Positions 38,411 through 64,000 of a stretch of 64,000 nucleotides of DNA are shown here, piece by piece. The DNA is taken from positions 4,153 to 68,152 of the IMG/VR virus record IMGVR_UViG_3300031998_000067; one strand, 5' to 3'. The stretch comes from a virus (taxonomy: Duplodnaviria; Caudoviricetes). The first letter of the stretch is position 1, and each line of letters opens with the position of its first letter. The notes under the pieces are model-generated. The model was not told the origin of the DNA. It searched no databases and was given only the letters and a program-made list of their open reading frames with translations. Both the position numbers and the translations under genes were made by a program.

Positions 38411-39059
38411 CATATCCAGAACACAACATTATCCCAACATTGATCCAAATCCGCCGAAAATCCAAAAATCGGCCTCTGACACCATTTCCCGCCCATTTCA
38501 CAAATTGTAAAATGCATTTCACTATTTGTAAAATCGATTTCGCAAATCTGTCAAATCGATTTGACTAAAATGCTCAACCAATACCATCTATATAACATCT
38601 GTATAAGAAACAATAAAAAGAAATGTAAAAAGAAAAGTTCACGCTTTGCGACTCCTCAACCGATATTGCAAGAAGTTGTAATTTCCAGTCGTAGATTTCA
38701 CTTCAAAAACCAATCTATTTCCGAACAGCTCTCTCGCGTATGCGCGTATGCGTACACACACTCGCTCTGGCAACCATCATTCCGATAGCGATAGCTATGC
38801 GTATCTTCCCTGGCTTTCGATAGAAATGCCCGCAGAGCGCCGATCCGGCACCCCGGTGGCACTCCGCATCATCTCGACACCTCCAATGCGATTCTGGGCC
38901 ATTTCTGGGGCCCAGGAGGGCAAAATTCAAGACAACCCGTTATCCCCTTTGGGGATACCCCCGAAACCGAAAATCCGAAAAATTCAAAAATGAAAAAATC
39001 AAAATTCGTGTGGGAGGTGGGCGATAGTTCCTTTTATACGCGCGGGGGGCCGGGGTGGC

Positions 39060-39319
39060 TAACTCATTGATTATCAATAAGTTATAAATGTTTATCTTAT
39101 AGGTATAAGGTAGCCGGGGCATTTGTAACAACTTTGTTACTTTTCCCGTCCGGGGCGCTCCGCAAGGGGCGGAATTCACCCCCTACAAGGGGCAAAATCC
39201 CATATTTAGAAACCGTCTAAATATATTTTCTAACTCATTGATTATCAACAACTTACAAGTATAAAATTATTCAAATAAGATGTAAATTTTTTTCTAACTT
39301 ATTGAATATCAAGCACTTA
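39060..39319. repeat. three copies of an imperfect palindrome
   Basis: TAACTCATTGATTATCAATAAGTTA at 39060; variants at 39231 and 39295. Confidence 0.75.
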
Positions 39320-39355
39320 CAAAGACGAAAAAAGTGCAAAAAAAGTTGTAAAAAG

Positions 39356-39386
39356 TTTGTTTTGTCAATTCTTTTTATTATATTTG
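39356..39386 (+). promoter_or_regulatory. consensus early promoter
   Basis: TTTG-N19-TATATTTG. Confidence 0.75.
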
Positions 39387-39488: not shown

Positions 39489-39986
39489 ATGACTAAATTA
39501 GAATTTGTTGTTAACTCCCTTTTTGAAAACAACGCTGCAAGCAAAATCAACGGATTTGCAAAGTACGAAAAAATCGTATCTTTTTACACTGCAAACAAAA
39601 TCGCTTTGCCTGTTTCCCTTACTTTTGTAGAAACAAAAAGCGCTGCAAGATTGACAAAGGACGAAACTATTTCCATACAAAGGGCGTATATTTCGGAGCT
39701 GAAAGCCGGAAACGTAACGCCTGAAACGGAAAGCAATTTCAACGCAATAGGCAAAGAAGACGAAAAAGTTACGTTTTCTAATACGGTTGTTTTTTCGGAG
39801 TGCTGCAAGGTTGTCGGATATTCCGCAACGGCTGCAAAACTTGTCGAAAGACTTTCCCCGAAACAATTAGAAGACTACCAGAAGACAACCCGCAACGGAA
39901 ACGCTCTGTTTTCCGTTTCCGAAATTCCCGCTATTATTGAAATGCTTTCCAAAATAGCGGAAAACGCTAATAAAGAAAGCAAATAA
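39489..39986 (+). CDS. AT-rich hypothetical protein
   Basis: 165-aa ORF after the promoter, followed by the 11-bp hairpin at 40022-40052. Confidence 0.7.
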   Translation: MTKLEFVVNSLFENNAASKINGFAKYEKIVSFYTANKIALPVSLTFVETKSAARLTKDETISIQRAYISELKAGNVTPETESNFNAIGKEDEKVTFSNTVVFSECCKVVGYSATAAKLVERLSPKQLEDYQKTTRNGNALFSVSEIPAIIEMLSKIAENANKESK

Positions 39987-40157
39987 AACCTTTTTCCCCT
40001 TTCAGAATTCAGTATTACAATAACCCCGGAAATTTTCAACGTTTCCGGGGTTACTTTGTTTTGTGTGGATTGAAACCCACACAAAGCGCAAAACAAATTG
40101 CAGTAAGACCGCCCAGGGCGCGAAGTATGGGACGGCGTGCGTAATTCCTTGACATAG

Positions 40158-40183
40158 CGAACGAACGGAACGAACGAACGGAA
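40158..40183 (+). repeat. tandem 13-mer CGAACGAACGGAA x2
   Basis: Read directly; embedded in GAACG-rich DNA. Confidence 0.85.
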
Positions 40184-40582
40184 CGACCAGGGCAGCAGCT
40201 CAGGCCGTGAAATTTTGTGCGCTCCGGGGAACGTCGCAGCTCTGCACCGTAGCATGGACGGGCCGGTGGTGAACGAATCCGAACGCGGGGAACGAGTTTC
40301 CCCAGGGCGAACGGCAGAACGTGATGAACGAGCAGAACGGTTGTGTTTGCAGCCAGTTCGATTTCACCACCGAAATAGTGAATGATTGATTGAACGAGTG
40401 CGGAACGGCTTGCGAGATTCTGGGTGTAAATCCAGGATCACGTCACAGACATTCAGAAATTCATCTTGACCGATGGACGGACGAGGAAAACAGGAACAGG
40501 ACAAGTCATAAAAACGCACTGGCGGAGGGTGGAGGAATCTGCCTTCCGTTTCCAATTCAACAACAACCAATCAACAACAACC

Positions 40583-40801
40583 ATGTGCAAAGTAAGTATT
40601 ATTCACGTTGCTTGCCAGGCGGGCAGCGAGGACGGCCGGAATTTCCCGGTTGAGAACCACGAAGAAATTATGAACATCTTTTCCCGTCAGTTTGAGGACG
40701 AGCGTGCTCAGGCAGCTTACTGCTCGAATTTCCTTGCGGAGATGGGGAACCGCATTTCTCCGGTGAACGGCATACCGATGCGTCAGTATGCGTGTGCATA
40801 A
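40583..40801 (+). CDS. array ORF, hypothetical
   Basis: ATG after the leader motif at 40566. Confidence 0.6.
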   Translation: MCKVSIIHVACQAGSEDGRNFPVENHEEIMNIFSRQFEDERAQAAYCSNFLAEMGNRISPVNGIPMRQYACA

Positions 40802-40869
40802 AGTGATTGTGTAGGTGGATTTGATTATCCGCCTACGCGCCAAATGTTTAACCAATCAAAATAGCTATT

Positions 40870-41118
40870 ATGAAAAAGATTATTTGCAGAGTTATCGAAC
40901 GACTGTTCCCCGAACAAGTTGCAAAGATTCGTGAAACGAACCGTGCCAGACGGGCTGCGATTCAGGTACTGCTCAACGTGAGCGGTGGTCTGCGTCGATC
41001 CGGATGCACGACCAGCGAAACGAACCGTGCACTGCGCAGTGCATTGAGCGCCTACGAACTGGGCGATTACGAGCATGTTCACGAACGTGCGGAACGTGCG
41101 GCGATAGCGAACGGTTGA
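40870..41118 (+). CDS. array ORF, hypothetical
   Basis: Leader at 40851. Confidence 0.65.
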   Translation: MKKIICRVIERLFPEQVAKIRETNRARRAAIQVLLNVSGGLRRSGCTTSETNRALRSALSAYELGDYEHVHERAERAAIANG

Positions 41119-41217
41119 CGAACGAACCGTATCCTGGATGCATCATCCTGACCGGTGTTGCATCCGCGAATTTTCACATTCACAATTATCAATCAACCAA
41201 TCAAAATCACAAGTATT

Positions 41218-41658
41218 ATGAAAAAAATGACTGTTACCGAACTGAACGCCCTCACCGACTACGTAGTGGAAAGCGTACTTGCATCCAAGCGCGACGAGGT
41301 TAAGAAATCCGTTTCCACGATCTCGGAGAACGAGTTGAACGAACTGCTCGCAAGGGCGGAAGAACTGGTCAAGGCCAAGAACGATGCGTACAACGCGCTG
41401 GAGGAGGCGAAGAAACGGCTCGATGAGTTTGAGAAAGGTCTTTTCGACAAGAATTTCCAGGGCCGTTACGTGTACGTGGATGGCTACTATTCCTCCACCA
41501 CGAAGATTCAGGAGTACAACGACGACACGCTGTTCAAGGGCACTAAATTCGAGCCGTGGATTCTCCGCAAGGACGTGGAGCGCAAGTTGGTCCTGAAGAA
41601 CCTCGGTTCGGAGGTGGACGTGGAGAGTTTCATCAAGGAACTGGTCGCGTCCTACTAA
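41218..41658 (+). CDS. array ORF, coiled-coil protein
   Basis: Leader at 41196. Confidence 0.75.
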   Translation: MKKMTVTELNALTDYVVESVLASKRDEVKKSVSTISENELNELLARAEELVKAKNDAYNALEEAKKRLDEFEKGLFDKNFQGRYVYVDGYYSSTTKIQEYNDDTLFKGTKFEPWILRKDVERKLVLKNLGSEVDVESFIKELVASY

Positions 41659-41724
41659 CCGATTTTTGGGTGCAGAATCCTGGCCGATTCTGCATTCACC
41701 ATTTCAACCAATCACAAACGAACC

Positions 41725-41919
41725 ATGGAAAAGACCTACGAATGTTGTCCGCACTGCGGTGCGGAGGTAGAGCTGGATGCAGAATTGAAGGTACAGAAAT
41801 GCCCGAACTGCGGAAAGCACATAGTAACGTGCAGTATGTGTATGAACGGCGAACTGGGCCGTCCGTGCACGTATGACTGCTGCCTTGAAATCCTGGCTCA
41901 TCACCTCAACGGTGAATGA
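41725..41919 (+). CDS. array ORF, Zn-ribbon protein
   Basis: CPHC, CPNC and CSMC pairs; leader at 41707. Confidence 0.7.
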   Translation: MEKTYECCPHCGAEVELDAELKVQKCPNCGKHIVTCSMCMNGELGRPCTYDCCLEILAHHLNGE

Positions 41920-41978
41920 ACGGTTGCGGAGCGAGTGATATTGCTCCGCAGCGCAAATCAACCAATCAACGAACTATT

Positions 41979-42419
41979 ATGAGAACACGTAAATTCAAGA
42001 CCTTGCGTGGATGGTTGAATTTTCTCAACCAACGCAGACCACGAACGAGCGCAAAGGGCAATCCGGAAATTTTCGAACCTCTGGACGAGTTTTTTAAGGA
42101 GGAACGGCATTTTGCCTATTTCTCCAACGTCTTCAAGGCGAACGAAAAATGGCACAGTGAAAATGTGATCCTCCCCTGGGAGGAGAAATATCCCGTCGCC
42201 CTTGCAATCGTGAACTACCACTGGAAATCACGCACGAAATCAGACCGTGAACGAATCGCAACGAACCTTGCGAAAGGCTACGGAGATTTGAGTTTTCTCC
42301 AGTGCTTTGCGGTGTCAATGGAGCGCGTGAACGGCAAGTGGCAGTATGTATTCTGCTCAAACGGCCTGAGCGGTCCGAGCTACGATTACTGCAAGCGAGA
42401 ATACGTGCGCAGTATCTGA
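41979..42419 (+). CDS. array ORF, hypothetical
   Basis: Leader at 41961. Confidence 0.7.
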   Translation: MRTRKFKTLRGWLNFLNQRRPRTSAKGNPEIFEPLDEFFKEERHFAYFSNVFKANEKWHSENVILPWEEKYPVALAIVNYHWKSRTKSDRERIATNLAKGYGDLSFLQCFAVSMERVNGKWQYVFCSNGLSGPSYDYCKREYVRSI

Positions 42420-42480
42420 ACGGTTGGCGGTTCCCGAAACGAACCGTCGGCCACCAATTCAATCTTCAAAATTCACAATT

Positions 42481-42783
42481 ATGAGCAAAAGTATCTATTG
42501 CGTCAAACACGAGTGGTTTGACGAGAGCGGAAACAAACTGGAATCCAAGTGCGTGACGCACGCCTGGTTTTCCGCATACTCACGCGCGGTGGACGAATTT
42601 GAATCACGTCTGACGAACCTCTACGACAAGGTTTATCCGAATCGACGAGTTGAACGGATTTCTCCAGCCACCGGATTTTCACCCGTGGACGGAACCTACG
42701 AACTATCCGCCGCAAAAGTGTATGCGAAACCGGAGGAGCAGAGCTGCATTCGCGTGGCACTTTGTGCCGTGGACTTGCAGTGA
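42481..42783 (+). CDS. array ORF, hypothetical
   Basis: Variant leader at 42453. Confidence 0.65.
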   Translation: MSKSIYCVKHEWFDESGNKLESKCVTHAWFSAYSRAVDEFESRLTNLYDKVYPNRRVERISPATGFSPVDGTYELSAAKVYAKPEEQSCIRVALCAVDLQ

Positions 42784-42847
42784 ACCATTTGCCTGGGCGT
42801 CCTTGGCCGGACAAACGGGCACCAACCAATCAATAAAACACACTATT

Positions 42848-43486
42848 ATGAACGACATCGCAAAAATGAGGAAGGAATTTGACGAGAAAATTCGCCTCGC
42901 AGAACTGGAGAATCAGTACAACGAACAGTTGGAAAAGGTCGGCCTTTCGATGAGTATTTTTACCACCGACAAGACCGGTCGTAATCTTGCGAGCATACAC
43001 AAGACGACCGACGACCGCTACCGCAATCCGTTTGACGGGCACGATGCGCAGAATCTTCTGCGGATTTTACCTATGACGGAGAGCAAGAGCGTGTACGTGG
43101 GCGACCACAAGTATGAACCGCTACCGTGCGAGATGGAAACATACCGCGCACCGAAATCTGCGAGAACGAACCTCTGCGTCAAGTACATCCACGACAACCT
43201 GGAGATATGGTTCGAGCTGCCCATCAACGAGCAGAACAACGAACTGATGCAGTATTTCCAGCGCACACAGCGTGAACTGGATAACAGCGAGATAGGGTTG
43301 TACTACGGATGTGTTTCTCCCAGGGAGAAATCGCGCTTGCAGATGCTCCCTTTCCTCACGTTCAACTGTGGACGGATCGTCCGTTTTCAGGGTGGCCATC
43401 ACAAGCAGATTTCCGAGGGCCACATCTCTTGCATCATAGCAAGCATCGAGAACGACGATTTCTCCTGGGAGCGCGTGAGTGAGTAA
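42848..43486 (+). CDS. array ORF, hypothetical
   Basis: Leader at 42825. Confidence 0.75.
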   Translation: MNDIAKMRKEFDEKIRLAELENQYNEQLEKVGLSMSIFTTDKTGRNLASIHKTTDDRYRNPFDGHDAQNLLRILPMTESKSVYVGDHKYEPLPCEMETYRAPKSARTNLCVKYIHDNLEIWFELPINEQNNELMQYFQRTQRELDNSEIGLYYGCVSPREKSRLQMLPFLTFNCGRIVRFQGGHHKQISEGHISCIIASIENDDFSWERVSE

Positions 43487-43548
43487 CGAACCGTTGCGTG
43501 GAGGGTGAATCTTCCACGCAGCACCAACCAACCAATCGAATCATAACA

Positions 43549-43842
43549 ATGTATTACAACGTAAGCGTATTGTTCTGCGAGTACGAGAATGGCATTTACC
43601 AACATCTGCCGTTTGCGTCGCCCGTGGTACGAACCGAGGAAGAGGCACAGAAACTCTTCGACTACGAACTGAAAGCCTACACAAACAACTGGCGCGGTAA
43701 CGAGCTGTTGTATGACAAGCCGGTTGACCGGACGCAGTTTCACAACGTCCGCCAGGCGCTCGTGAAATGCAACGAGGCTGCGTATGTGCACGGCTACTAT
43801 CTGCTTGAACTCAACGAGTGGAGTATCAATCCGCACGAATGA
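43549..43842 (+). CDS. array ORF, hypothetical
   Basis: Leader at 43531. Confidence 0.7.
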   Translation: MYYNVSVLFCEYENGIYQHLPFASPVVRTEEEAQKLFDYELKAYTNNWRGNELLYDKPVDRTQFHNVRQALVKCNEAAYVHGYYLLELNEWSINPHE

Positions 43843-43904
43843 GTGCTATTTCTCCCGGCTCCTGAACGAACCGGGAGGAACCGAACCAATCAAATCAAGT
43901 AACT

Positions 43905-44219
43905 ATGACACACAACTACAACATTTGGCTTTGGCCGGGCGCTGGTTACTGCCTGGACGGGCCGTGGGAAATCAAGGATGCAAGTTGCGAGGAGCACGCA
44001 ATCGAACTACTCGTGACCGACTTGATCGCAAAGGAGAGCTGGTGCTATTTGCTCAAAGAAGATGAGTATGAAAAGACGTGCCGTGAACTCGGTTACAATC
44101 CCGATGAACACGATGGCGACGATTTGGAGGGATGGTTGTACGTGGATGCAACAATGGAAGGTGCGCCCTATCCGGTGTATCTGCGGATCGAGAATATGCG
44201 CATCGATGAAATCAAGTGA
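43905..44219 (+). CDS. array ORF, acidic hypothetical
   Basis: Leader at 43885. Confidence 0.7.
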   Translation: MTHNYNIWLWPGAGYCLDGPWEIKDASCEEHAIELLVTDLIAKESWCYLLKEDEYEKTCRELGYNPDEHDGDDLEGWLYVDATMEGAPYPVYLRIENMRIDEIK

Positions 44220-44278
44220 TTTGCTCCGGCGGATTTGAGCGTCCGCCAGGGCGCCAACAACCAATCTACACAATCACT

Positions 44279-44548
44279 ATGCTTAAAGACAGAGTAAAAG
44301 AACTAATCGACCGCTACGAAGAGGGCGAAGAATGCCTCACTCCGAGCGACGTCCAAGAGGAACTTGAAAATATCCTCACAGACGAACCGTATGACAGTGT
44401 GAACCTCAAACTCGAGATGGATTTGCAAGACGCACTACACGACTACATCATCGCTCAGCACGACGCGGAGCGTGGTGGTGGCCGCATCCCGGACGGTGGC
44501 GACGAATTTATCGAAGCCGTGGAGCGAATCATCGGCTACAATGACTAA
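44279..44548 (+). CDS. array ORF, strongly acidic protein
   Basis: Leader at 44260; D/E-rich. Confidence 0.7.
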   Translation: MLKDRVKELIDRYEEGEECLTPSDVQEELENILTDEPYDSVNLKLEMDLQDALHDYIIAQHDAERGGGRIPDGGDEFIEAVERIIGYND

Positions 44549-44606
44549 CCGTTCCTTGCGGGAGTGAAATTCCGCAAGGGAGCCAACCAATCAAATATCT
44601 ATCACT

Positions 44607-45251
44607 ATGCGAACCATTACATTTAACGTGTACCAACTGGACGAGTTGTCCGAGGGTGCAAGGAAGAACGCCATTGATAACGTGCGCTCCAAGGTAGGCG
44701 ATATGCTCTGCGATTTCGACGCGGACGATTACCGCTCCACTCTGGAGGAGATCGAGAAAATCTTCGGCATCAAAGTGTACGACTGGAGCGTCGGTTATCC
44801 CGGCACCTATTCTCGCTGGCGTTTCACCGACGAACGGTGGAGCGAGATGAGCGATGATCCGAAATTCCTCGTGCGCTACTGGAACGCCGTGGAGCGGTAT
44901 TGCAGAAAGGGACGTTACTATTCCGGACATTGGAGGAACGTTCCGAAAAGCAAGGAGCATCCGGCTGGATTGTCTTGCCTCACGCGGTACAGCAAGGTTA
45001 TGTGGGAGCGTAACTATGCTCTCACCGGAACCTGGACTTCAAGCGTCGTGGATGATTACACCGGAAAGAAAATCTGGGAGTATGTGCGCAAACGCAGAAC
45101 GATTGAGGATTTCGTGGACGATATGCTCTATGATTTCTTCAAGCAGTGGGAGCGCGACCAGGATGCGAACTACGAGGATGAGGCCATAGAAGACACTATC
45201 CTCGGGAATGACTACGAATTCACCGAAAACGGTGTTCGTTACGTCGCATAA
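44607..45251 (+). CDS. array ORF, conserved mobile-element protein
   Basis: VYQLDELSEGARKNAI and EAIEDTILGNDYEFTENG, a widespread phage/plasmid pattern. Confidence 0.75.
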   Translation: MRTITFNVYQLDELSEGARKNAIDNVRSKVGDMLCDFDADDYRSTLEEIEKIFGIKVYDWSVGYPGTYSRWRFTDERWSEMSDDPKFLVRYWNAVERYCRKGRYYSGHWRNVPKSKEHPAGLSCLTRYSKVMWERNYALTGTWTSSVVDDYTGKKIWEYVRKRRTIEDFVDDMLYDFFKQWERDQDANYEDEAIEDTILGNDYEFTENGVRYVA

Positions 45252-45311
45252 CATCTGCCATGGCGGCATTGAACCGCCGCCGTGGCGCCACACCAATCAA
45301 ATTCAAGCACT

Positions 45312-45572
45312 ATGAACACACAAACACGCAACGAGATTGCATCTTGGCTCTTCGATAGAGTGGGCCAAGGCAAGCGCGAAGAAGTCGGCTCTATGGATTT
45401 CGACACCTTCAACGACGGACAAGAAGAGTTCCGTGTAACCATTATGAAAGATGAGGACGACAAGTACCAGGTCTGGATGATGGACTATGCGATTCCCGAT
45501 TTCACAATCGAGCAGAACACCACGGAGGAACTGATACAGACCGCCATTGATTTGTGGTACGAAACGCTTTGA
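45312..45572 (+). CDS. array ORF, acidic hypothetical
   Basis: Leader at 45292. Confidence 0.7.
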   Translation: MNTQTRNEIASWLFDRVGQGKREEVGSMDFDTFNDGQEEFRVTIMKDEDDKYQVWMMDYAIPDFTIEQNTTEELIQTAIDLWYETL

Positions 45573-45575
45573 GCC

Positions 45576-45794
45576 ATGGAAGAAGAAAACCCTATCTGGA
45601 AACTGATCGAGCGCATCGAGAATGCGTTTTCGAAGGATGATTTGAAATCGGCACCACGCGAGGTGCTGGAGCAAGTCATTGCTGACACTTACGACGGACT
45701 GTGCGCCATCGCTGATTCCCAGGTTGACCCGTGGGAAAGGGATGATGTTGCGCTCGCAGAAATCCGCAACCGAATCTTGTCTGTGCGCTCTTGA
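45576..45794 (+). CDS. array ORF, hypothetical
   Basis: Starts 3 nt after the upstream stop. Confidence 0.6.
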   Translation: MEEENPIWKLIERIENAFSKDDLKSAPREVLEQVIADTYDGLCAIADSQVDPWERDDVALAEIRNRILSVRS

Positions 45795-45978
45795 CCGAGC
45801 GCATAGGCGCCAATCCAAAATTATTCATTATCTTTGCAGACAGCAACACGCAGGGATGCGTGACATAATAAAAGGGAGACTGTCGTGAGACAGCCGTGAG
45901 TTATTAAAAAATTTTCTGGCCAGTCATTCGGGAACGAGTGGCTGGCTTCCATTTTACAACCAATCAAATCACATACTT

Positions 45979-46359
45979 ATGGACGAAAAAATCATTTTGA
46001 GGCCCGCGCAGTATTATCTCTGCGACCGGGAGAAAGAAATCGAGCCCGGCAAGAAGTATCTCTGCGAGACCGGCTCGTCTTACGAAATGAACCTCACCCT
46101 GACGTGTGAGCAAATCCAGCAAGGCTATCACTCCGGCTCTTGTGATGCCGACGTGGAGGCCCTTATGGAAGCGCCCGAGGTCAAGGCTCAGCTTGACGCC
46201 ATTCCCGACGACACACTCAACAAGTGGTGGGAGAACGATATGTTCGTGGACGACACTCCGGAAGAGCACCAGAACGCCACTCGCAAGCAGCGCCTTGCGT
46301 GGCTCGTGTTTGACTGCTGCGCCAACGCAATCGATGGCTACTGCTATGAGATGAAGTGA
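45979..46359 (+). CDS. array ORF, acidic hypothetical
   Basis: Leader at 45959. Confidence 0.7.
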   Translation: MDEKIILRPAQYYLCDREKEIEPGKKYLCETGSSYEMNLTLTCEQIQQGYHSGSCDADVEALMEAPEVKAQLDAIPDDTLNKWWENDMFVDDTPEEHQNATRKQRLAWLVFDCCANAIDGYCYEMK

Positions 46360-46360
46360 T

Positions 46361-46576
46361 ATGGCAAAGCGTAGAACACTCCGAGAGAGGGTTGCCGAAC
46401 TCAATGAGATTCTTGGCGACCACCCGAAGTTTCATTTCGGCATCATCCAGAACTACACGGAGCACCGCTATCCGTATGCTCTTGTGTGGAACTGTTGCGG
46501 TGCGGTGGAACGTAGTCTTTCCTTCCGCGAGATGAAACAAATGGCCATCCAACTGCACGCAGAAATCGCGCAGTAA
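46361..46576 (+). CDS. array ORF, hypothetical
   Basis: Coupled to the upstream stop. Confidence 0.6.
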   Translation: MAKRRTLRERVAELNEILGDHPKFHFGIIQNYTEHRYPYALVWNCCGAVERSLSFREMKQMAIQLHAEIAQ

Positions 46577-46640
46577 CTCTTTACTCTCTGCCCATTGAAC
46601 CGGACAGAGGGTGCCACAAACCAATCAAATCTTTACTATC

Positions 46641-46907
46641 ATGAAAATCGTATCATTAAACCACGAAAGCAACGACGTAGAGTTTTTCTACCTCACAGAC
46701 GAGTATGCCAAATGGTGCATCGACCACGCAATCGGCGACGAAGAGTACGAAGAGCCTGAGTGCTTCAACAACTTTATGACCGATTTCTTCCGTGATCTCG
46801 GATATGACAATCCGGAGTTTAAGTCCTTTATGCGAATCGACGATGATGATACTCCGGTGAATATCCTGGAGGCTTATCCCGATGAGCATATCATCGAAAC
46901 CATCTAA
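46641..46907 (+). CDS. array ORF, strongly acidic protein
   Basis: Leader at 46620. Confidence 0.7.
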   Translation: MKIVSLNHESNDVEFFYLTDEYAKWCIDHAIGDEEYEEPECFNNFMTDFFRDLGYDNPEFKSFMRIDDDDTPVNILEAYPDEHIIETI

Positions 46908-46918
46908 TCCGGCGTGCT

Positions 46919-47248
46919 ATGAAAGCAAGACTTTATCGTGCGACTGGCGAGGCCAGAAACTACGTCGATGGCTACACGCTCTATTTCCCGTACCCGAAAT
47001 GGTATCGGGAAGAGCTGCCTTACTATTCTATCGGGTGCTTCCTCGGATGCTCCCCGGCAAGGGACGGAACGATGATCCGTTGCAACTGGGACGAGATGGA
47101 CGAGAAGTACACTTTCAAGGGCCTTGGCCGAAAGGTAAAAATTGAGTCTATGCCCGAACCTTTCCAGAAAGAGGTTGCAAGGATGCAAGCACTCTGGGAC
47201 GAGGCGTGCAAGACACGCAATTTCGACCGGTGGAATAAGGAGGCGTAA
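46919..47248 (+). CDS. array ORF, hypothetical
   Basis: Ends at the terminator hairpin at 47251. Confidence 0.7.
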   Translation: MKARLYRATGEARNYVDGYTLYFPYPKWYREELPYYSIGCFLGCSPARDGTMIRCNWDEMDEKYTFKGLGRKVKIESMPEPFQKEVARMQALWDEACKTRNFDRWNKEA

Positions 47249-47250
47249 AG

Positions 47251-47345
47251 AAAAACCCCAGACGTGTCTGGGGTTCCCCGCCGGACGGATTCCGGCATCT
47301 TTAAGCACTTTTCAAGTATGCGCTTCAAATTCATCTTGAAAATCG
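47251..47345 (-). ncRNA. candidate small RNA
   Basis: Minus-strand promoter TTTG-N20-TACCTTTA, two stems and a terminator. Confidence 0.4.
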
Positions 47346-47480
47346 GGCGGATAAAGGTAGTAATTTCTAACTACTAATCCAAATCCGAGCGCGGAGGGAC
47401 ACGCCTCCGCGTGTGCTTTCTGTATGGGAAAGCGGACTTGACCGTCCGCCTTCCCTCCAATCAACCAATCAATTACAGCT

Positions 47481-47912
47481 ATGTACACCAGTGAAATTCA
47501 AAAGAGGCTTATGAACCTCATCGACAAGCACCAGACAACCTACAACCGTGCTTATGGTCTTGCTCTATACAACGGAGCCAACCCGAAAGAAATGACCGAT
47601 TCGTACCACCTTGCTCTCTGGTTCGAGGGTGCGGATGCGGGCGTCAAGAATGACTTCTTGTCAATCTTTGACAACTCATTCTCCGACACCGGCCTTCGCA
47701 TCTGCGACGTGTGCGGAAAGTTCATCACCGAGGGCTATCTGCTCCACGGCCTTGACGACTACGCTTGCTCCAGGGAATGTGCAATCAAAATCTTCCAGTG
47801 GAACGGACTGGATGCTTCTCTCTCGCCTGAAGAGGCAGAGAAGAGACTTGACCGCGCTCTGGAGGAGGACGAAGACGACAACTTCTGGACGGAGTGGTAT
47901 CAGGAATTGTAG
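47481..47912 (+). CDS. array ORF with Zn-finger
   Basis: CDVC and CSREC; leader at 47464. Confidence 0.7.
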   Translation: MYTSEIQKRLMNLIDKHQTTYNRAYGLALYNGANPKEMTDSYHLALWFEGADAGVKNDFLSIFDNSFSDTGLRICDVCGKFITEGYLLHGLDDYACSRECAIKIFQWNGLDASLSPEEAEKRLDRALEEDEDDNFWTEWYQEL

Positions 47913-47968
47913 GGGCGAAACCCTACTTTTCCACCAAACTTATGTTCAACCTTTTAATTCACAACATT

Positions 47969-48505
47969 ATGGAACCAAAAATTATTTTCAAGGATGGTCG
48001 TGAGGGCGAAATGACACTCGACGCTATCAAGGGCATCGCTATCCCGAGGATTGACGGTGAAACAATCTTGGTTTACCCGAAGTACAAGGACTGCATCCTA
48101 CTCGACGAGAACCGCATCCGCGATTGGAAAGAACCCGAGCACGATGAAATCGACGCTCTGTTCGTGGACGCGGACCGCAGTAAGGAGGTAACCGACGATC
48201 TGCTCGCGCTGGATAGCCCGGCGGCAAAGCATGTCCGCAGTGTCGGAGAGCAGTTCAACATCCCGAGTCTGCTCACCGTCGGAGCAATCTGGAAATACCG
48301 TAAGGACATCAATGCCCTTGCAAAGAATATCTCCGGCGCAGACCTTCTCCGCGAACGTCCGTACCTCTGGTCTTGCTGCCGTGGCGGCGCCTACTACGCT
48401 TGGATTGCCCTCGGCTACAACGGGTTCTTCAGCGGCATCAATATGTATTACAGCGTTACCGTTGTGCCCGTGTCGCATCTTAACCTGAGCGAAAGCGAGG
48501 CTTAA
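47969..48505 (+). CDS. DGR target 2, stand-alone CLec-like protein (about 178 aa)
   Basis: ATG 47969; FNIPSLLTV...INALA...YLWSCCR; ends in VR2. Confidence 0.9.
   Translation: MEPKIIFKDGREGEMTLDAIKGIAIPRIDGETILVYPKYKDCILLDENRIRDWKEPEHDEIDALFVDADRSKEVTDDLLALDSPAAKHVRSVGEQFNIPSLLTVGAIWKYRKDINALAKNISGADLLRERPYLWSCCRGGAYYAWIALGYNGFFSGINMYYSVTVVPVSHLNLSESEA
48360..48477 (+). repeat. DGR variable repeat VR2
   Basis: 118 bp matching TR 12674-12791; 18 mismatches, all at TR adenines. Confidence 0.97.
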
Positions 48506-48517
48506 TCCTTATTCCTT

Positions 48518-48544
48518 GGGCGAGGGCGCTCCGTCGCCCCGCCC
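48518..48544 (+). other. GC hairpin downstream of VR2
   Basis: GGGCGAGGGCG-CTCCGT-CGCCCCGCCC, 12 nt after the stop. Confidence 0.8.
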
Positions 48545-48607
48545 TTTGCTCTGGATAGTCGCCCCCGACCGGGCGGCTGTCTGCTAACAATCAAAAACAC
48601 AATCACT

Positions 48608-48841
48608 ATGGCTATCAAAGTAACAAAACGGCACACCGGCGAACGCGGGTGCACGTATTCAATATCTGGTTTGACCTTCGACCAGGTATTCCGCATCAAG
48701 AATGCAATGTATGCAGAGGCGGAAAAGATGAAGGCGATTGCAGAGGGCGAGATGCAAGACTATGCACGCTTGCAAGAGGAGTTTAAGCAGTACGCGAAGG
48801 ATGCCCTCTCCGTGGCCGAGGCGGTTAATCTTGGCATTTGA
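48608..48841 (+). CDS. array ORF, hypothetical
   Basis: Variant leader at 48586. Confidence 0.65.
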   Translation: MAIKVTKRHTGERGCTYSISGLTFDQVFRIKNAMYAEAEKMKAIAEGEMQDYARLQEEFKQYAKDALSVAEAVNLGI

Positions 48842-49076
48842 TTGGTTGTAGGGGCGGGGAACCGCCCCTTTGGCCGCTAATTAACCCAATCAAAACACAT
48901 TCATTATGGCAACACAAAAATTTCGCATCACCTTGGAGCATCCCTATGGCCCCTGGGACACCTATGTGGTAGAAGCTAAAGACCTCAAATCCGCAAGGAA
49001 GAAGGCAAAGGACATCTACGTGAAGAACTACTTCACAAGGAGGGAAATCAAGACATATAACGAGCCCTTATAGCCT

Positions 49077-49340
49077 ATGAAAGTCACGGTTTACAGAAGC
49101 GTCGATTCCAAGCCCGGCGCATTCATTTCCTACTCGATCACCGGCAGGAAAGACCCTATCGTGGAGTTCTACATCCTTGACCATGGTTTCCTTGTTCTGG
49201 GGGCAACCTACACCGGCGGATATATGAGACGATTCTACAAGACGGAGGCCGGAGCAAAGCGCTGGATGAAGTCTTACGTCACAGAGTTCTGCCGAACCTA
49301 CTGGCCGCATCATGAGATAGAAATCGTGCCGGTCTTCTGA
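49077..49340 (+). CDS. array ORF, hypothetical
   Basis: Packed ORF. Confidence 0.6.
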   Translation: MKVTVYRSVDSKPGAFISYSITGRKDPIVEFYILDHGFLVLGATYTGGYMRRFYKTEAGAKRWMKSYVTEFCRTYWPHHEIEIVPVF

Positions 49341-49404
49341 TGCTCGCCTTACCCGTATTGAACCACGGGTGAGGTGCCAATTTAATTCAATCAAAATCAC
49401 TGTT

Positions 49405-49710
49405 ATGGCAAAGGAATACGAACTCTATTTGCGCTCGTGGTCCCACCTCAACCCAAATGCGAAGGAGGACGAGGACTACGAAACTGTTGACTTCGAGCCG
49501 TGCGTCAACTATCGTGACGCGGTGAAACGGGCGAAGGAACTCTCTAAAAGCATTCCGTTCAAGAACCACTACGGACAAGAGATAGTCCAGGTGCAGATTG
49601 CCGCCTACATTGCGGATGAGGAGGAAAAGTACGGAACGACCTATTATCTTCTCTGGAAGGAAACCTACGAAAACGGCAAGGGCCTTGGGAGATACAACAG
49701 CGAAATCTAA
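49405..49710 (+). CDS. array ORF, hypothetical
   Basis: Hairpin plus variant leader. Confidence 0.65.
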   Translation: MAKEYELYLRSWSHLNPNAKEDEDYETVDFEPCVNYRDAVKRAKELSKSIPFKNHYGQEIVQVQIAAYIADEEEKYGTTYYLLWKETYENGKGLGRYNSEI

Positions 49711-49878
49711 CATTCAACGACTATGTATCACTACACAGTAGAAGTGTCCGCTGAAGGACATGAGAACACAAACTTCAACTCCTATGAAGTCGCCTTGGAA
49801 TACTACAACAAATTAAAGCAGCAAGGCATGAATCCCGTACTACGTGACAATCTCACCAACACCGTAATCAAGTAGGCT

Positions 49879-50196
49879 ATGGAACGCGAAATCAGTATTC
49901 AAATCCACGACTACGACCGTGCTGGCCGGTACGTGATTACCGAGGATCGCAAGGCGACCTTGGATGAGGTACACGAACTGAAAGAAACGGCACGTAAGTC
50001 CGTCAAGGCGGACTGGTGGAGGCTCCCCAGGGAGGCTACGCACATCGTGTACTATGCCGAGATGTTGGATAAGGACGGAGAGGTATGGTTCGCCGGTATC
50101 TATATGCACGGCGAGGCGTACGATGAGGCGGAGTTTGACCGTATCTTCCACCAAACGAACATCGGCTATGTCGGTGCAATTCACAAACGTGTTTAA
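49879..50196 (+). CDS. array ORF, hypothetical
   Basis: Packed ORF. Confidence 0.6.
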   Translation: MEREISIQIHDYDRAGRYVITEDRKATLDEVHELKETARKSVKADWWRLPREATHIVYYAEMLDKDGEVWFAGIYMHGEAYDEAEFDRIFHQTNIGYVGAIHKRV

Positions 50197-50260
50197 CCTT
50201 ATGCCCGGCGGCTCCTGATCGAACCTCCGGGTGCTATTCACCAATTAAAAATTACTCATT

Positions 50261-50512
50261 ATGAAAATCTATGTCGGACGTTGGGACTTGCTTCCCGACA
50301 ATCTGGAGGGTTATAATGGCCTTCGTCAAATGAACCGTATGGACGTGGCAGTAGAACTGTCGCACGAAATCGAACGTTATGCCGAAACGCACGACGTTGA
50401 GGACAATAGGATGGGTGTCTATACGCCCGAGGAATTCGAAGATGAGTTCAACCAGACCCTCGAGAAACACTTTACGTCCGAAGACTATTGGATTCGCATT
50501 TTTGCGTACTAA
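50261..50512 (+). CDS. array ORF, acidic hypothetical
   Basis: Hairpin plus variant leader. Confidence 0.65.
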   Translation: MKIYVGRWDLLPDNLEGYNGLRQMNRMDVAVELSHEIERYAETHDVEDNRMGVYTPEEFEDEFNQTLEKHFTSEDYWIRIFAY

Positions 50513-50528
50513 TCACTATCTTTGCACT

Positions 50529-50786
50529 ATGATGCCAAAGTGGTACTACATCTTATGGAACCGCCTCGCTTGGATAAGCGTGGCCGTGCTCGTGCTATTC
50601 CTTCTGGTAGCTTGCATCCTCGCGTTCATCTTCCATATCTACGTGTCCGGGGGCCTCTATTGGTGGGTATGCGCCGGATGTCTCGCGGTATTCGTAATGG
50701 GCCTCACCATCTGGTCTGACGGCGTTGCGCAGTATGGAAGGAAGAACGCAAAAGATGCGGAGGAAAAAGAAAAAGAGAAGGAGTAA
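50529..50786 (+). CDS. two-TM membrane protein
   Basis: Two hydrophobic helices and a charged tail; TATCTTTG at 50517 just upstream. Confidence 0.65.
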   Translation: MMPKWYYILWNRLAWISVAVLVLFLLVACILAFIFHIYVSGGLYWWVCAGCLAVFVMGLTIWSDGVAQYGRKNAKDAEEKEKEKE

Positions 50787-50866
50787 TCTTCCTATCAACG
50801 AATTATGGGCGGGCGAGGGTGATTCCTTGCCCGCTCGCCATTATTAACAATCAAAATCACAATGCT

Positions 50867-51703
50867 ATGACACCACTTTACGACGCGATCGAATGCGTCA
50901 CACCCAAAAGCAGACCGAGCCTTATCAAGTACCTGAAGGCCAGTAAAATCAACTCGTGGAATGACATAGACACTGCGCACCTCAAACGGTTCGCCAAGAT
51001 AGTCAGGTCTTCCATGGCACCATCATCAGCACACACCACCTTCGCCGTGTTCAAAGGATTCCTATCAAAGTTCGACGATGAAATCGATCTCCCGAAAGGG
51101 TGGCGTAAAATTCTCGTCCAGAAGAACGAAGACACAATGAAGACTTATCTCACCGCAGAGGAGGTCGAGAAGTTTGGCGAGGTCTGGGTAGATGATGCCC
51201 GCCAACAAACCGTCCGGGACGGGTTCTATGTTTCGTGCAAGACCGGACTCAGGCATTCCGATCTGGTGAAGCTGACGCCCTCCAACTTCGAGAAGAGGGA
51301 AGACGGCTCCTACCTCCTTAACTACGTCTCCAAGAAGACGAAAATCCACGCCACCATCCCTTGCTCCGCAAAGACGAAGGAGAAAGTGGATTGGCTACAC
51401 AAGAACGGCAAGCAAGTGTCGCTCTCGTACTACAACTATATGGTACGAACCATCGCGGAGTGGGCTGGCATCAACGAAGAAGTCTCCGTGTACAAGGCGG
51501 GACAAGAACTCACCGGCCCCAAGTATCAGTTCATTTCCTCACACTCTGCCAGAGTCTCGTTCAGCACGATCCTCGCCGATTTCGATACCGACCTCGTAGA
51601 TATTATGCGCATGGCCGGTCACAAGGACCCGGCAATGACGGCACGATATATCGTCCGGCACGGGGTGAGGGTTAACAAGAAGGTACAGAAATTCCTTATG
51701 TAA
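50867..51703 (+). CDS. second tyrosine recombinase lacking an arm-binding domain
   Basis: TGLRHSD (R), SSHSAR (HxxR), AGHKDPAMTARY (H, Y). Confidence 0.9.
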   Translation: MTPLYDAIECVTPKSRPSLIKYLKASKINSWNDIDTAHLKRFAKIVRSSMAPSSAHTTFAVFKGFLSKFDDEIDLPKGWRKILVQKNEDTMKTYLTAEEVEKFGEVWVDDARQQTVRDGFYVSCKTGLRHSDLVKLTPSNFEKREDGSYLLNYVSKKTKIHATIPCSAKTKEKVDWLHKNGKQVSLSYYNYMVRTIAEWAGINEEVSVYKAGQELTGPKYQFISSHSARVSFSTILADFDTDLVDIMRMAGHKDPAMTARYIVRHGVRVNKKVQKFLM

Positions 51704-51722
51704 CACTTAATATCAATCAGCT

Positions 51723-51938
51723 ATGTTCATCATTAAGAAAAACACCAAGGCCGGTCTCCAGTTCACCGGCATCGAATGCGAAATCCTCGACGAAGCCAAG
51801 GCCGAATGTTCTGTGCAGACTGCGGGGAAGACACCAACCACCGACGAGGCGGATAACTACTTCCGTCTGGAGGTGTACGAGGTTGCCGAGAATGGCGACC
51901 AGAACCAGGTGTATGTCACGGACTTCTTCGAGGAGTAG
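51723..51938 (+). CDS. acidic hypothetical protein
   Basis: Last ORF of the array. Confidence 0.65.
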   Translation: MFIIKKNTKAGLQFTGIECEILDEAKAECSVQTAGKTPTTDEADNYFRLEVYEVAENGDQNQVYVTDFFEE

Positions 51939-52018
51939 TCCGCATTGGTCACGGGAGCCTGACCGTTCCCGTGGTCGCTATCGCAGTTCATAGTGAACGG
52001 TGATTTTTGATTGGACGC

Positions 52019-52047
52019 CCCGGGGTATTGCGCCTCCGGGGTTTTTG
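52019..52047 (+). terminator. intrinsic terminator ending the array
   Basis: CCCCGG...CCGGGG-TTTTT. Confidence 0.7.
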
Positions 52048-52226
52048 TTGTATATTTGTGTCTCGGTAGGGTCACACCCAAAATCGGTTAAATCGATGCG
52101 ATTTAGATTTGGTTAAAAATCCTTAAAATGGGGGCAAAAATCGTTATGATTTCGCCTTGAAAACGAACCGAAATAGAGGGTGTAACTGATTGATAACCAC
52201 CGAGAATACCCATAAAACCGGGCTAC

Positions 52227-52303: not shown

Positions 52304-53476
52304 TTACTTTTTGAAAAGAGGGTTGTTTTTGAGCGCCTGGGCGTTCTCCTCTTTCGTCAGCTTTACATAGGTCGCAAATGACCTCTCGTTCTTGTGCCCG
52401 GTGATGAGCATTATCTGTCTCTCCGGCACGCCCTGCAAGACAAGCGTAGTCGCCAGAGATCGACGGCAGCAGTGGGACGAGATGAGCATATACTTCGGCT
52501 TCGTGGTCTTGACTTGCTTGCCACCCTTGACGATGGTGGTCGTGACGGGCTGATTGATGCCCGCCTTACAACAAACCATCTTTATCTCCCGATTCAGCTC
52601 CTCTTGGGACATCCGGGGTGCCCTTCCGCCGTTACGTTTGAGCATCTTCACCACCCTGGGAGAACAGGGTATAAGGGACTCCACGCCGGTCTTCCGCGAG
52701 GTGAGATGGATGATGCCGTCACGGATCATACTCTGCTCCAGATGCGAGTAGTCGGAGAACCGCGCCCCACAGTAGAAGCCGATGAGGAAAAGGTCGCGCA
52801 CTTCCTGGTCGTGCTTGTTGGGCAGCTTGAGGGCCCACAGACGCTCTATCTCGTCTTCGGTGAGGTACACGCTGTCCGAGGGCATAAAATGCTTCTTGAC
52901 GGCAAGGAACGCCGTGTTATGGTGCAATCCTTTGGCGAGCGCTTCGTTGAGACAGGACTTGAGTTTGGTTATCATCGAGGACTTGTAGTTCTCGGAGTAG
53001 TTGCGGTCATTGAAACCGTCTATGAGCCGACGGAACCAGTCTTCGGTGAGGTCGTCCCAGTTGTCGCCCTTTCCCATTATCTCCGCCACGATGTTCTGGG
53101 TGCTGACGTGTTGGCGTTTTGCGGGCCTCTCACGCGATGCGTACTCGTCATAGAACTCCCAGAACGTCTTGGGTGCTTCGGGCGTCTCTACGGGCAATTC
53201 TGCTCGCCCTGCGGCGATTCCGGAGAGAACTTTGCGGATATGCTCTTCGGTGGAATAGTCGTCGAGATGGGTTTGGAGGTAGAGGTCAATCTTCCGCATC
53301 TTCTCGGCTACCTTTGTATCGGTGCAATACTGCGGGCCCTTCTTCGGCACCTTCCACTGCTTTGTGGGAACTGTGATGCCGATGGCCTTGTTGTATATCT
53401 TGCCCTTATGATGGATGGCAATCCTTATCGGGCTCTTCTCCTTGCTCGGAGTGCAGAGGTTCCAGTTTATTTTCAT
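52304..53476 (-). CDS. int: site-specific integrase (tyrosine recombinase)
   Basis: N-terminal arm domain, CGARFSD, SSHCCRRS, TGHK...Y. Confidence 0.95.
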   Translation of the reverse strand: MKINWNLCTPSKEKSPIRIAIHHKGKIYNKAIGITVPTKQWKVPKKGPQYCTDTKVAEKMRKIDLYLQTHLDDYSTEEHIRKVLSGIAAGRAELPVETPEAPKTFWEFYDEYASRERPAKRQHVSTQNIVAEIMGKGDNWDDLTEDWFRRLIDGFNDRNYSENYKSSMITKLKSCLNEALAKGLHHNTAFLAVKKHFMPSDSVYLTEDEIERLWALKLPNKHDQEVRDLFLIGFYCGARFSDYSHLEQSMIRDGIIHLTSRKTGVESLIPCSPRVVKMLKRNGGRAPRMSQEELNREIKMVCCKAGINQPVTTTIVKGGKQVKTTKPKYMLISSHCCRRSLATTLVLQGVPERQIMLITGHKNERSFATYVKLTKEENAQALKNNPLFKK

Positions 53477-63158: not shown

Positions 63159-63976
63159 AAGAAGACATCATCTTTACCGCAGAGCCGCAGCAGATGCACG
63201 GCAAGTATGTGGCGGAAGACCTCAACCGAACGTGGAAAGAGGTCGAAGAGAAGACCGATCCCAAGGACGGCCACAAGTTCAACGCCGAGGTTGAGAAGAA
63301 AGAACTCATCCTCAAGAGGGGCACCCTTCTGGATGCCGACAACATCCAGGTAGTTCAGTTCCATCTCCAGGCCGGGGACATCACCGGAGTGTACTGCTCC
63401 GCTATTCAACGCCGCGCTATCCTCGCATCGCCTCCGGCGTGGCAGAAGCCGTGGAAGATTCAAGTGGAGAATTCTGTGAAGCCCACCAAGCACACGGTTA
63501 TCCTCTATGCCAAGACCGTCACCGATGCTCTGGCCATCACGGCCGAGTATATGGAGCGCACCTACGACGGCATCTTCACCTTCAAGAGTGTGGGTAATTT
63601 CGACAGCGCAACATTTGTTGCTCCAAAGCCCCGCGAGTTGAAGGAGGGCGAGAAGGCTCCCGAGCTGAACTTCTACCAGATTTCCATCTCCGCCCGTTGG
63701 CGTGACGACAATGATGAGCAGAACGGCACCATCATCCTCCAGTCCGAGAACGTGGACGAGGCTCTGGCTGTGATTGAGAAGATCATCACCGAGCGTCGTG
63801 AGAAGTTCGTTAAGGAACTCAAGGCCAACTCCAAGGATGAGGAGCGAATCAAGGGTGAGACCAAGAAACTCAAAGCCGGATTCGTCCTCACTCTCAACGA
63901 GGCGAAGATTATCAAGTGCACGGACATCGTGCCGAAGGAACTCTCCGACTCGTTCTATCCTGACGACCGTAAGTAA
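63155..63976 (+). CDS. hypothetical protein
   Basis: 273-aa ORF with good codon bias. Confidence 0.7.
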   Translation: MKEDIIFTAEPQQMHGKYVAEDLNRTWKEVEEKTDPKDGHKFNAEVEKKELILKRGTLLDADNIQVVQFHLQAGDITGVYCSAIQRRAILASPPAWQKPWKIQVENSVKPTKHTVILYAKTVTDALAITAEYMERTYDGIFTFKSVGNFDSATFVAPKPRELKEGEKAPELNFYQISISARWRDDNDEQNGTIILQSENVDEALAVIEKIITERREKFVKELKANSKDEERIKGETKKLKAGFVLTLNEAKIIKCTDIVPKELSDSFYPDDRK

Positions 63977-64000
63977 GGAAAAAGGCGCGGGTGCGGTACT

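Follow-up and report, generated by a model that had tools for sequence, protein, structure and literature searches.

The closest described counterparts of the element reported here are the promoter-early stem-loops (PeSLs) of T4-type phages, short composite intergenic modules in which a stem-loop is combined with the start signals of the downstream gene. They are repeated between the small ORFans of variable, hyperplastic regions, and indels and replacements between relatives occur at these modules (Arbiol et al. 2010, PMC2839356; Comeau et al. 2014, PMC4122927). A PeSL contains a sigma-70-type promoter and a stem-loop that has been shown to terminate transcription. Our analysis of a 64,000-nt stretch of tailed-phage DNA (the window; bases 4153–68152 of the 68,152-bp virus record IMGVR_UViG_3300031998_000067) revealed a similar module of about 61 nt between the small genes of one array. 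It differs from PeSLs in several respects: it shows no host-type promoter, and T-tails are missing from its hairpins; the stems vary between units, with their length fixed and their loop conserved; only an 11-mer is shared, compared with about 100 bp in PeSLs; and the phage is a temperate siphovirus whose host very probably does not rely on Shine–Dalgarno (SD) sites. The unit has a defined anatomy, is selected for its fold in RNA, is restricted to one array, and coincides with the breakpoints of mosaicism between relatives. We propose, as what we would call an even bet, that it is a promoter-less, PeSL-like intercistronic module that insulates or stabilises cistrons, provides SD-independent ribosome entry, and serves as a recombination linker.

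A sequence-only reading of the window had listed the heptamer ACCAATC at 14 positions, each 17–23 nt before an ATG and nearly all of them behind a GC hairpin. All 14 are exact plus-strand matches, from 40566 to 47464, and the distance from motif start to ATG is 17–23 nt in 53 of 56 units. The hairpin loops quoted in that reading are likewise present (ATTGAACC three times, TTGACC, CTGGCC, TTGGCC, GTGAAT, and GTGATT). The heptamer matches 26 times in the window, with 9.1 matches expected, and this number was reached in none of 100 shuffles. When the motif is extended to the 11-mer AACCAATCAAA and up to one mismatch is allowed, 15 plus-strand copies are found, all within 40565–48894; a single match outside this interval, inside a tail gene, looks like chance, and one exact inverted copy lies at 48837–48847. 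Variants at 42453, 48586, 48885, 49386, 50240, and 50846, one-mismatch heptamers among them, raise the number of units in the array to about 20. The stretch between about 40.1 and 52.05 kb has the appearance of a single, co-oriented transcription unit; it holds about 28 small ORFan genes, the intergenic gaps being quantised at about 58–68 nt. The earlier portrayal of the cargo as small and acidic holds as a description (median 93 aa; pI below 6 in 19 of 28 proteins), and no family assignment was found for any of these genes.

Eight related arrays contain about 120 units in total, 77 in the first five (the window, L155, L156, L158, and L160), which form the set used for the anatomy, and 43 in L170, L290, and L294; L294, L295, and L296 are one sequence and yield no extra joints. 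The order within a unit is stop codon, hairpin, spacer, 11-mer, leader, and AUG. The stop codon, frequently found within T(G)AAC(C/G), precedes the hairpin by 3–6 nt. Stems are 12 or 13 bp long; 49 of the 77 hairpins have a total length of 30 or 32 nt, and 60 measure 30–33 nt. The 6-nt loop follows the consensus YUGACC: among 32 stacked hairpins, G is invariant, U occurs 29 times, A 27 times, and the final C 28 times. The stem base is conserved as UG...CR, followed by an invariant C. A spacer of 4–8 nt (full spread 0 to 22 nt; 75% A+C) connects the hairpin to the 11-mer. The leader beyond it contains 4% G and ends with A at -3 (81%), Y at -2, and U at -1 directly ahead of AUG. Of 65 units, 47 have 57–66 nt between stop and ATG.

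Selection acts on the hairpin as an RNA structure. Its folding z-score averages -3.55, compared with -0.37 in control windows, and lies below -2 in 95% of the 77 units. A gapless stack of 32 hairpins shows 94% standard pairs, as opposed to 54.5% after shuffling and about 40% with slid partners, a figure inflated by ascertainment because these hairpins were picked as folding with the commonest geometry, although this bias is tempered by the z-scores of the full set. Changes on both sides are seen at all 13 stem pairs. G·U combinations (68; 16% of pairs) far exceed A·C combinations (13) in the stems, and the plus-strand fold is the more stable one in 64 of 77 units (p = 1.7e-8); it follows that the sense transcript, or less likely the plus DNA strand, is what folds. 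The covariation and the asymmetry between G·U and A·C thus bear out the initial suggestion of a repeated RNA element.

A covariance-model scan of the whole 64 kb, on both strands and with filters off, placed 23 of 24 matches in the array, on the plus strand between 40020 and 51978, and the lone match elsewhere in the window is weak (E = 0.45), in agreement with the impression that other operons lack the unit. In 103 kb from seven other loci, all 49 matches fall on the coding strand of the arrays. The same model produced five matches in 26 Bacteroidaceae-family genomes, three of them on a phage contig binned with one genome, and the 11-mer occurs about one to three times per 2-Mb genome in 61 genomes of this family, roughly twice the level of a reversed-pattern control. 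In these sampled genomes, then, the motif is not equally frequent before host genes. No match to the array emerged from a BLAST search of 50,697 phage records, and a protein-anchored search with one cargo gene found nothing. Two motif-pattern scans of IMG/VR returned single matches only, with at least two units in 0 of 235 fetched loci, and are uninformative on the spread of the module.

Relatives whose portals are 74–78% identical have the same module, and comparison with them supports the idea, also voiced from the sequence, that cassettes can be swapped at the unit. Pairwise BLAST between the arrays yields a mosaic of 121 homology blocks: 40% of the block ends fall 0–30 nt after a motif start (5% at random), and 53% of the block starts fall from -60 to +10 of a motif (13% at random). 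Relative C lacks the cassette at 43905–44254, and its one unit at this place equals unit 9 of the window (array A) up to AACCAATC and unit 10 beyond, so that the crossover of this indel lies within AACCAATC, that is, on the 11-mer. A 1.7-kb block that is 93.6% identical to L290 begins immediately ahead of the motif at 44260 and ends immediately behind the one at 45959. Replacements in contigs of other cattle samples have left joints at 41969, 43896/43897, and 49382, a few bases from a motif, and right joints that coincide with the next motif or with a start or stop codon. Shared gene families are collinear in seven arrays, with 6–13 ORFs unique to each array. Such an order, interrupted by indels, is more readily explained by homologous exchange at short linkers held in common than by a single integron-like entry site, and we infer that the exchange is homologous rather than site-specific.

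The features of the array and its upstream flank are as follows, in window coordinates.

39357–39386, plus strand: promoter-like site of Bacteroidetes type (TTTG, 18 nt, TATATTTG), by consensus match alone, ahead of the conserved 165-aa gene 39489–39986
40021–40089, plus strand: two terminator-like hairpins after gene 39489–39986, the first followed by a T-rich stretch; they delimit the array unit upstream
40100–40520, plus strand: ORF-less leader, conserved in five phages; GAAC 9–17 versus GTTC 0–3
40521–40585, plus strand: unit 1; GGAA-loop hairpin, tandem motif, AACCAATCAAC, ATG 40583
40807–40872, plus strand: unit 2; hairpin 40807–40840, 11-mer 40850–40860, ATG 40870
41134–41220, plus strand: unit 3; hairpin 41134–41167 (loop CTGACC), long spacer, 11-mer 41195–41205, ATG 41218
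41666–41727, plus strand: unit 4; hairpin 41666–41699, 11-mer 41706–41716, ATG 41725
41921–41981, plus strand: unit 5; hairpin 41921–41954, 11-mer 41960–41970, ATG 41979; left replacement joint 41969 in another sample
42420–42483, plus strand: unit 6; hairpin 42420–42454, variant ACCAATT 42453, ATG 42481
42789–42850, plus strand: unit 7; hairpin 42789–42822, 11-mer 42824–42834, ATG 42848
43491–43551, plus strand: unit 8; hairpin 43491–43524, 11-mer 43530–43540, ATG 43549
43848–43907, plus strand: unit 9; hairpin 43848–43881, 11-mer 43884–43894, ATG 43905; left edge of the cassette missing in relative C
44221–44281, plus strand: unit 10; hairpin 44221–44254, motif 44259–44269, ATG 44279; right edge of the cassette missing in C; start of the 1.7-kb L290 block
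44550–44609, plus strand: unit 11; hairpin 44550–44583, 11-mer 44585–44595, ATG 44607
45255–45314, plus strand: unit 12; hairpin 45255–45288 (8-nt loop ATTGAACC), motif 45291–45301, ATG 45312
45777–45835, plus strand: decayed unit; best-scoring hairpin (loop TTGACC), then GCCAATCC; leader ends CATTATC, not CATTATG; no ORF after it
45916–45981, plus strand: unit 13; hairpin 45916–45949 (the sole array hairpin that also scans as T-tailed), 11-mer 45958–45968, ATG 45979; end of the L290 block
46581–46643, plus strand: unit 14; hairpin 46581–46614, 11-mer 46619–46629, ATG 46641
47424–47483, plus strand: unit 15; hairpin 47424–47457 (loop TTGACC), tandem TCCAATCA and ACCAATCA, ATG 47481
48551–48610, plus strand: unit 16; hairpin 48551–48584 (loop CCGACC), variant AACAATC, ATG 48608
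48837–48908, plus strand: unit 17; inverted 11-mer 48837–48847, hairpin 48842–48877, variant ACCCAATCAAA 48884–48894, ATG 48906
49344–49407, plus strand: unit 18; hairpin 49344–49377 (loop ATTGAACC), variant TTCAATC, ATG 49405; left replacement joint 49382 in another sample
50201–50263, plus strand: unit 19; hairpin 50201–50234, variant ACCAATT, ATG 50261
50805–50869, plus strand: unit 20; hairpin 50805–50838, variant AACAATC, ATG 50867 of the 278-aa tyrosine recombinase
51945–51978, plus strand: terminal family hairpin (38 bits, loop CTGACC) that follows the last gene and precedes no forward leader
52017–52050, plus strand: closing GC hairpin and T-run, terminator-like by consensus

Several units depart from the common pattern. 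The inverted 11-mer just upstream of the unit 17 hairpin is found likewise in relatives B, C, and D, and the motif of this unit could be locked into a long stem with its inverted copy. Tandem partial duplicates of the motif, such as TCCAATCA followed by ACCAATCA, occur at 41188–41202, 43523–43537, 47456–47470, and 40551–40572 and could be footprints of imprecise exchange. On the minus strand at 51981–52016, just past the terminator hairpin of the other strand, a reverse motif variant, GTCCAATCAAA, and a CACTATG leader face into the array end; L170 has an exact ACCAATC copy at the same place, while the small minus-strand ORF in the window overlaps a conserved plus-strand gene, which makes its reality doubtful. 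Within the leader of about 450 nt that opens the array there is a tandem run, GAACGAACGGAACGAACGAACGG, and the GAAC copies of this leader are partly spaced 9–10 nt apart; across the whole array GAAC(C/G) is about threefold enriched on the plus strand, with a peak at the 5' end. In the related array of L294, a cassette at 18549–18863 encodes a single-strand DNA-binding protein (Pfam SSB), which hints at expression of the array together with replication-phase genes.

The window encodes a large terminase, a portal, a major head protein, a 1770-aa tape measure, a primase/helicase, a 390-aa integrase, and a second tyrosine recombinase of 278 aa. The structural genes together with the integrase and the second recombinase identify the phage as a temperate siphovirus. 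The two ends of the record (window 63253–64000; genome bases 1–748) share a 748-base overlap with 96% identity, probably the product of an assembly of two strain variants or of a terminal repeat, and the genome is likely to be complete, at about 67.4 kb. Public runs containing array DNA are bovine, sheep, or other gut metagenomes, with no RNA run among those listed; this is a rumen phage of the cattle gut, and the related arrays come from bovine-gut phages. Contigs of relatives were binned with Bacteroidaceae, Paludibacteraceae, and Treponemataceae genomes. An SD-like 4-mer precedes only 11 of 78 long ORFs genome-wide, and judging from these upstream regions the host very probably does not use SD sites; in combination with the TTTG/TATATTTG site, this points to a host of Bacteroidota type. 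The conserved 165-aa gene behind that site, upstream of the array, gave no lead in Pfam, PHROG, NCBIfam, or Atlas, and its protein model is good (pLDDT 86) yet has no fold match in the PDB. The AT-rich control region at 38520–39330 contains three copies of a roughly 30-nt repeat (ctaactcattgattatcaa...) and short direct repeats such as 'gtaaaat'; these repeats could be operators or an origin. L170 (relative F) keeps the 278-aa recombinase (window 50867–51703) and lacks the segment that holds the 390-aa integrase (window 52304–53476), and the former may be the ancestral recombinase of this phage group.

What do the units do? They do not look like intrinsic terminators, given that the 10 nt 3' of the stem contain a mean of 1.8 T and 75% A+C, with at least five T in just 6 of 77 units, and that one of about 20 array hairpins scans as a terminator; it is the array as a whole that is bracketed by T-tailed terminator-like hairpins, at 40021 and 52017. 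The information content of the 11-mer, about 17 bits, is on a par with that of single-element phage late promoters. One may consider the units as true PeSLs, with ACCAATC as a single-element promoter for a modified or alternative host polymerase and the hairpin stopping upstream transcription: the layout is the same (PMC2839356, PMC4122927), and unit 1 stands ahead of the first gene with no ORF upstream of it. We nonetheless regard this as quite improbable. Neither TAnnTTTG nor a sigma-70-type hexamer pairing of loop and 11-mer occurs in any unit, and the sole plus-strand sigma-70-type match inside a unit belongs to unit 3, in its long spacer. The record yielded no sigma-factor domain, and a search for a phage RNA polymerase was blank, as were its controls, which makes it a weak, uninformative negative. 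Moreover, the hairpins lack T-tails, the units are co-oriented inside an operon that has its own terminator-like brackets, and the last gene is followed by a family hairpin to which no leader is attached. A variant with an extracytoplasmic-function (ECF)-like -35 element in the loop and a -10 element in the 11-mer was dropped, as the distance between hairpin and motif ranges from 0 to 22 nt and no fixed upstream signal emerges when the units are anchored on the motif. A binding site at the DNA level is the basis of stoperators in Cluster A mycobacteriophages (L5, Bxb1, TipsytheTRex; PMC9283540), which are also short asymmetric motifs in tens of copies, intergenic and oriented with transcription in a temperate phage. 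By analogy, AACCAATCAAA, an asymmetric motif of about 11 bp with some 20 copies that are always intergenic, could be the site of a prophage protein silencing the array in the lysogen by blocking elongation. Stoperators, however, are distributed genome-wide and share their sequence with the early-promoter operator, whereas the motif here is confined to one 11-kb array and has no copy, at up to one mismatch, at candidate promoters or in the immunity region; DNA binding would also leave the RNA-strand hairpin and its coupling to a motif 17–23 nt from the ATG unexplained, and we judge this scenario very unlikely. At least as doubtful, in our estimate, is an integron-like system in which the 278-aa tyrosine recombinase moves cassettes site-specifically at the hairpin and ACCAATC, folded as single-stranded DNA. 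The resemblance is considerable: cassettes are promoter-less, co-oriented, and mostly of unknown function, the hairpins resemble attC sites in keeping structure with sequence free, the arrays of A, B, D, F, and L290 end with a small recombinase gene, and one crossover maps to the conserved 7-mer. Unlike IntI, this recombinase has only weak Xer-type matches (39.8 bits versus a cut-off of 220) and matches no integron-integrase model at E up to 0.01. The 7-mer lies 4–8 nt outside the stem, with an inverted partner in one unit only instead of the inverted R''/R' core, no consistent pattern of extrahelical bases is seen, the 16% G·U pairs would be G·T mismatches in DNA, and the shared cassettes are collinear among relatives, not piled up at one entry site.

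The alternative that we take most seriously, unlikely as we consider it, is a trans-acting factor that reads the units in RNA, either a nuclease that cuts the transcript into monocistrons in the manner of T7 RNase III processing or Cas6, or a processive antitermination or RNA-binding factor that recognizes both the 11-mer and the YUGACC loop, with the GAAC leader as its possible loading site. Loop sequence, stem length, and stem base are kept and stem sequence is free, as a structure-plus-loop reader would need; the leader is conserved over 450 nt with GAAC outnumbering GTTC by 9–17 to 0–3, and several loops read UGAACGAACC. The YUGA of the loop fits the YUNR U-turn type, which is known from antisense RNA recognition. 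The term YUNR U-turn occurs in PMC4485353. Against this stand the lack of any candidate factor, two conserved genes at the array head being without family or fold match, and the lack of a credible Rfam family for the unit. The anatomy also fits poorly with the two precedents invoked in the sequence-only reading. The RNase III sites of the T7 early region (R0.3 to R1.3) are similarly placed, between early-type small genes on one long transcript, and the hairpin left at the 3' end stabilises the mRNA in T7; their stems are longer and irregular, with an internal loop, in contrast to the one continuous 12–13-bp stem (60 of 77 units) and conserved hexaloop seen here, which has no lower stem or internal loop. 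Lambda-type nut sites (boxA/boxB) number one or two near the promoter, with a short stem and a pentaloop, whereas about 20 sites per operon, 12–13-bp stems, and 6-nt loops are found in the array. A tRNA-minihelix or RNase P substrate (12 bp followed by NCCA) was also entertained and dropped: CCA follows the stem in 35 of 77 units, and the spacer is CA-rich anyway.

We return to the promoter-less intercistronic module, for which we propose the following model. The array would be read as one long transcript in which about 20 junctions carry a standard 61-nt module. The hairpin would keep the flanks of each cistron folded away, preventing the coding sequence from pairing with the next leader, and may block 3' exonucleases or mark a processing point. 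The G-free, single-stranded leader, with AACCAATCAAA followed by 8–12 nt, A at -3, and AUG, would then form an SD-independent landing pad for the ribosome. Translation starts in Bacteroidetes are described as following a rule of low structure and A at -3 (PMC6847099), a rule matched by the low use of SD sites (11 of 78), A at -3, and the unstructured leader. Of the functions first suggested for the repeat, a translational activator site is the best reading of the 11-mer and G-free leader, as judged from their sequence. Finally, the shared 11-mer would act as a recombination seam between phages or between units of one phage. Because junctions carry the common 11-mer and often T(G)AACC at the stop codon as well, whole cassettes could be exchanged, deleted, or added without breaking expression.

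Several considerations weigh against this model. The roles of the unit in translation and stability, and with them transcript ends, processing, and effects on translation, are all deduced from sequence; the host of Bacteroidota type is likewise inferred rather than demonstrated, the array's own promoter was not identified, and the pairing figure for the stacked hairpins carries the ascertainment bias described above. The 11-mer has no significant complementarity to 16S rRNA in one Paludibacteraceae genome, where the longest run is 7, a length equalled by 203 of 500 shuffled motifs, and an anti-16S enhancer was accordingly rejected. Most importantly, the strict conservation of both 11-mer and loop sequence exceeds what a landing pad needs, and something reads both specifically. 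It is for this reason that a specific reader, be it a nuclease, an RNA-binding protein, or a small RNA, stays a serious rival to the model.

As a long shot, we speculate that hairpins, YUGACC loop, 11-mer, and GAAC leader are cis-elements of one control system, in which a protein or small RNA, of phage or host origin, would be loaded at the leader, read every junction, and cut, protect, or switch on the cassettes together. If true, such a single control system would represent a 'punctuated operon' logic that is undescribed for Bacteroidota phages. The module proposed here would show a way for a phage of an SD-ignoring host to make unrelated genes plug-and-play, by supplying each with a standard context and an exchange seam, and it would carry the PeSL idea beyond lytic T4-type phages, to a temperate siphovirus of the gut and to a promoter-less version. 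As a small, defined module of 61 nt with about 120 natural variants and compensatory changes, it may also serve as a test bed in which mRNA stability and the initiation of translation are studied in Bacteroidota, and the unit is a candidate insulator part for engineering these bacteria.

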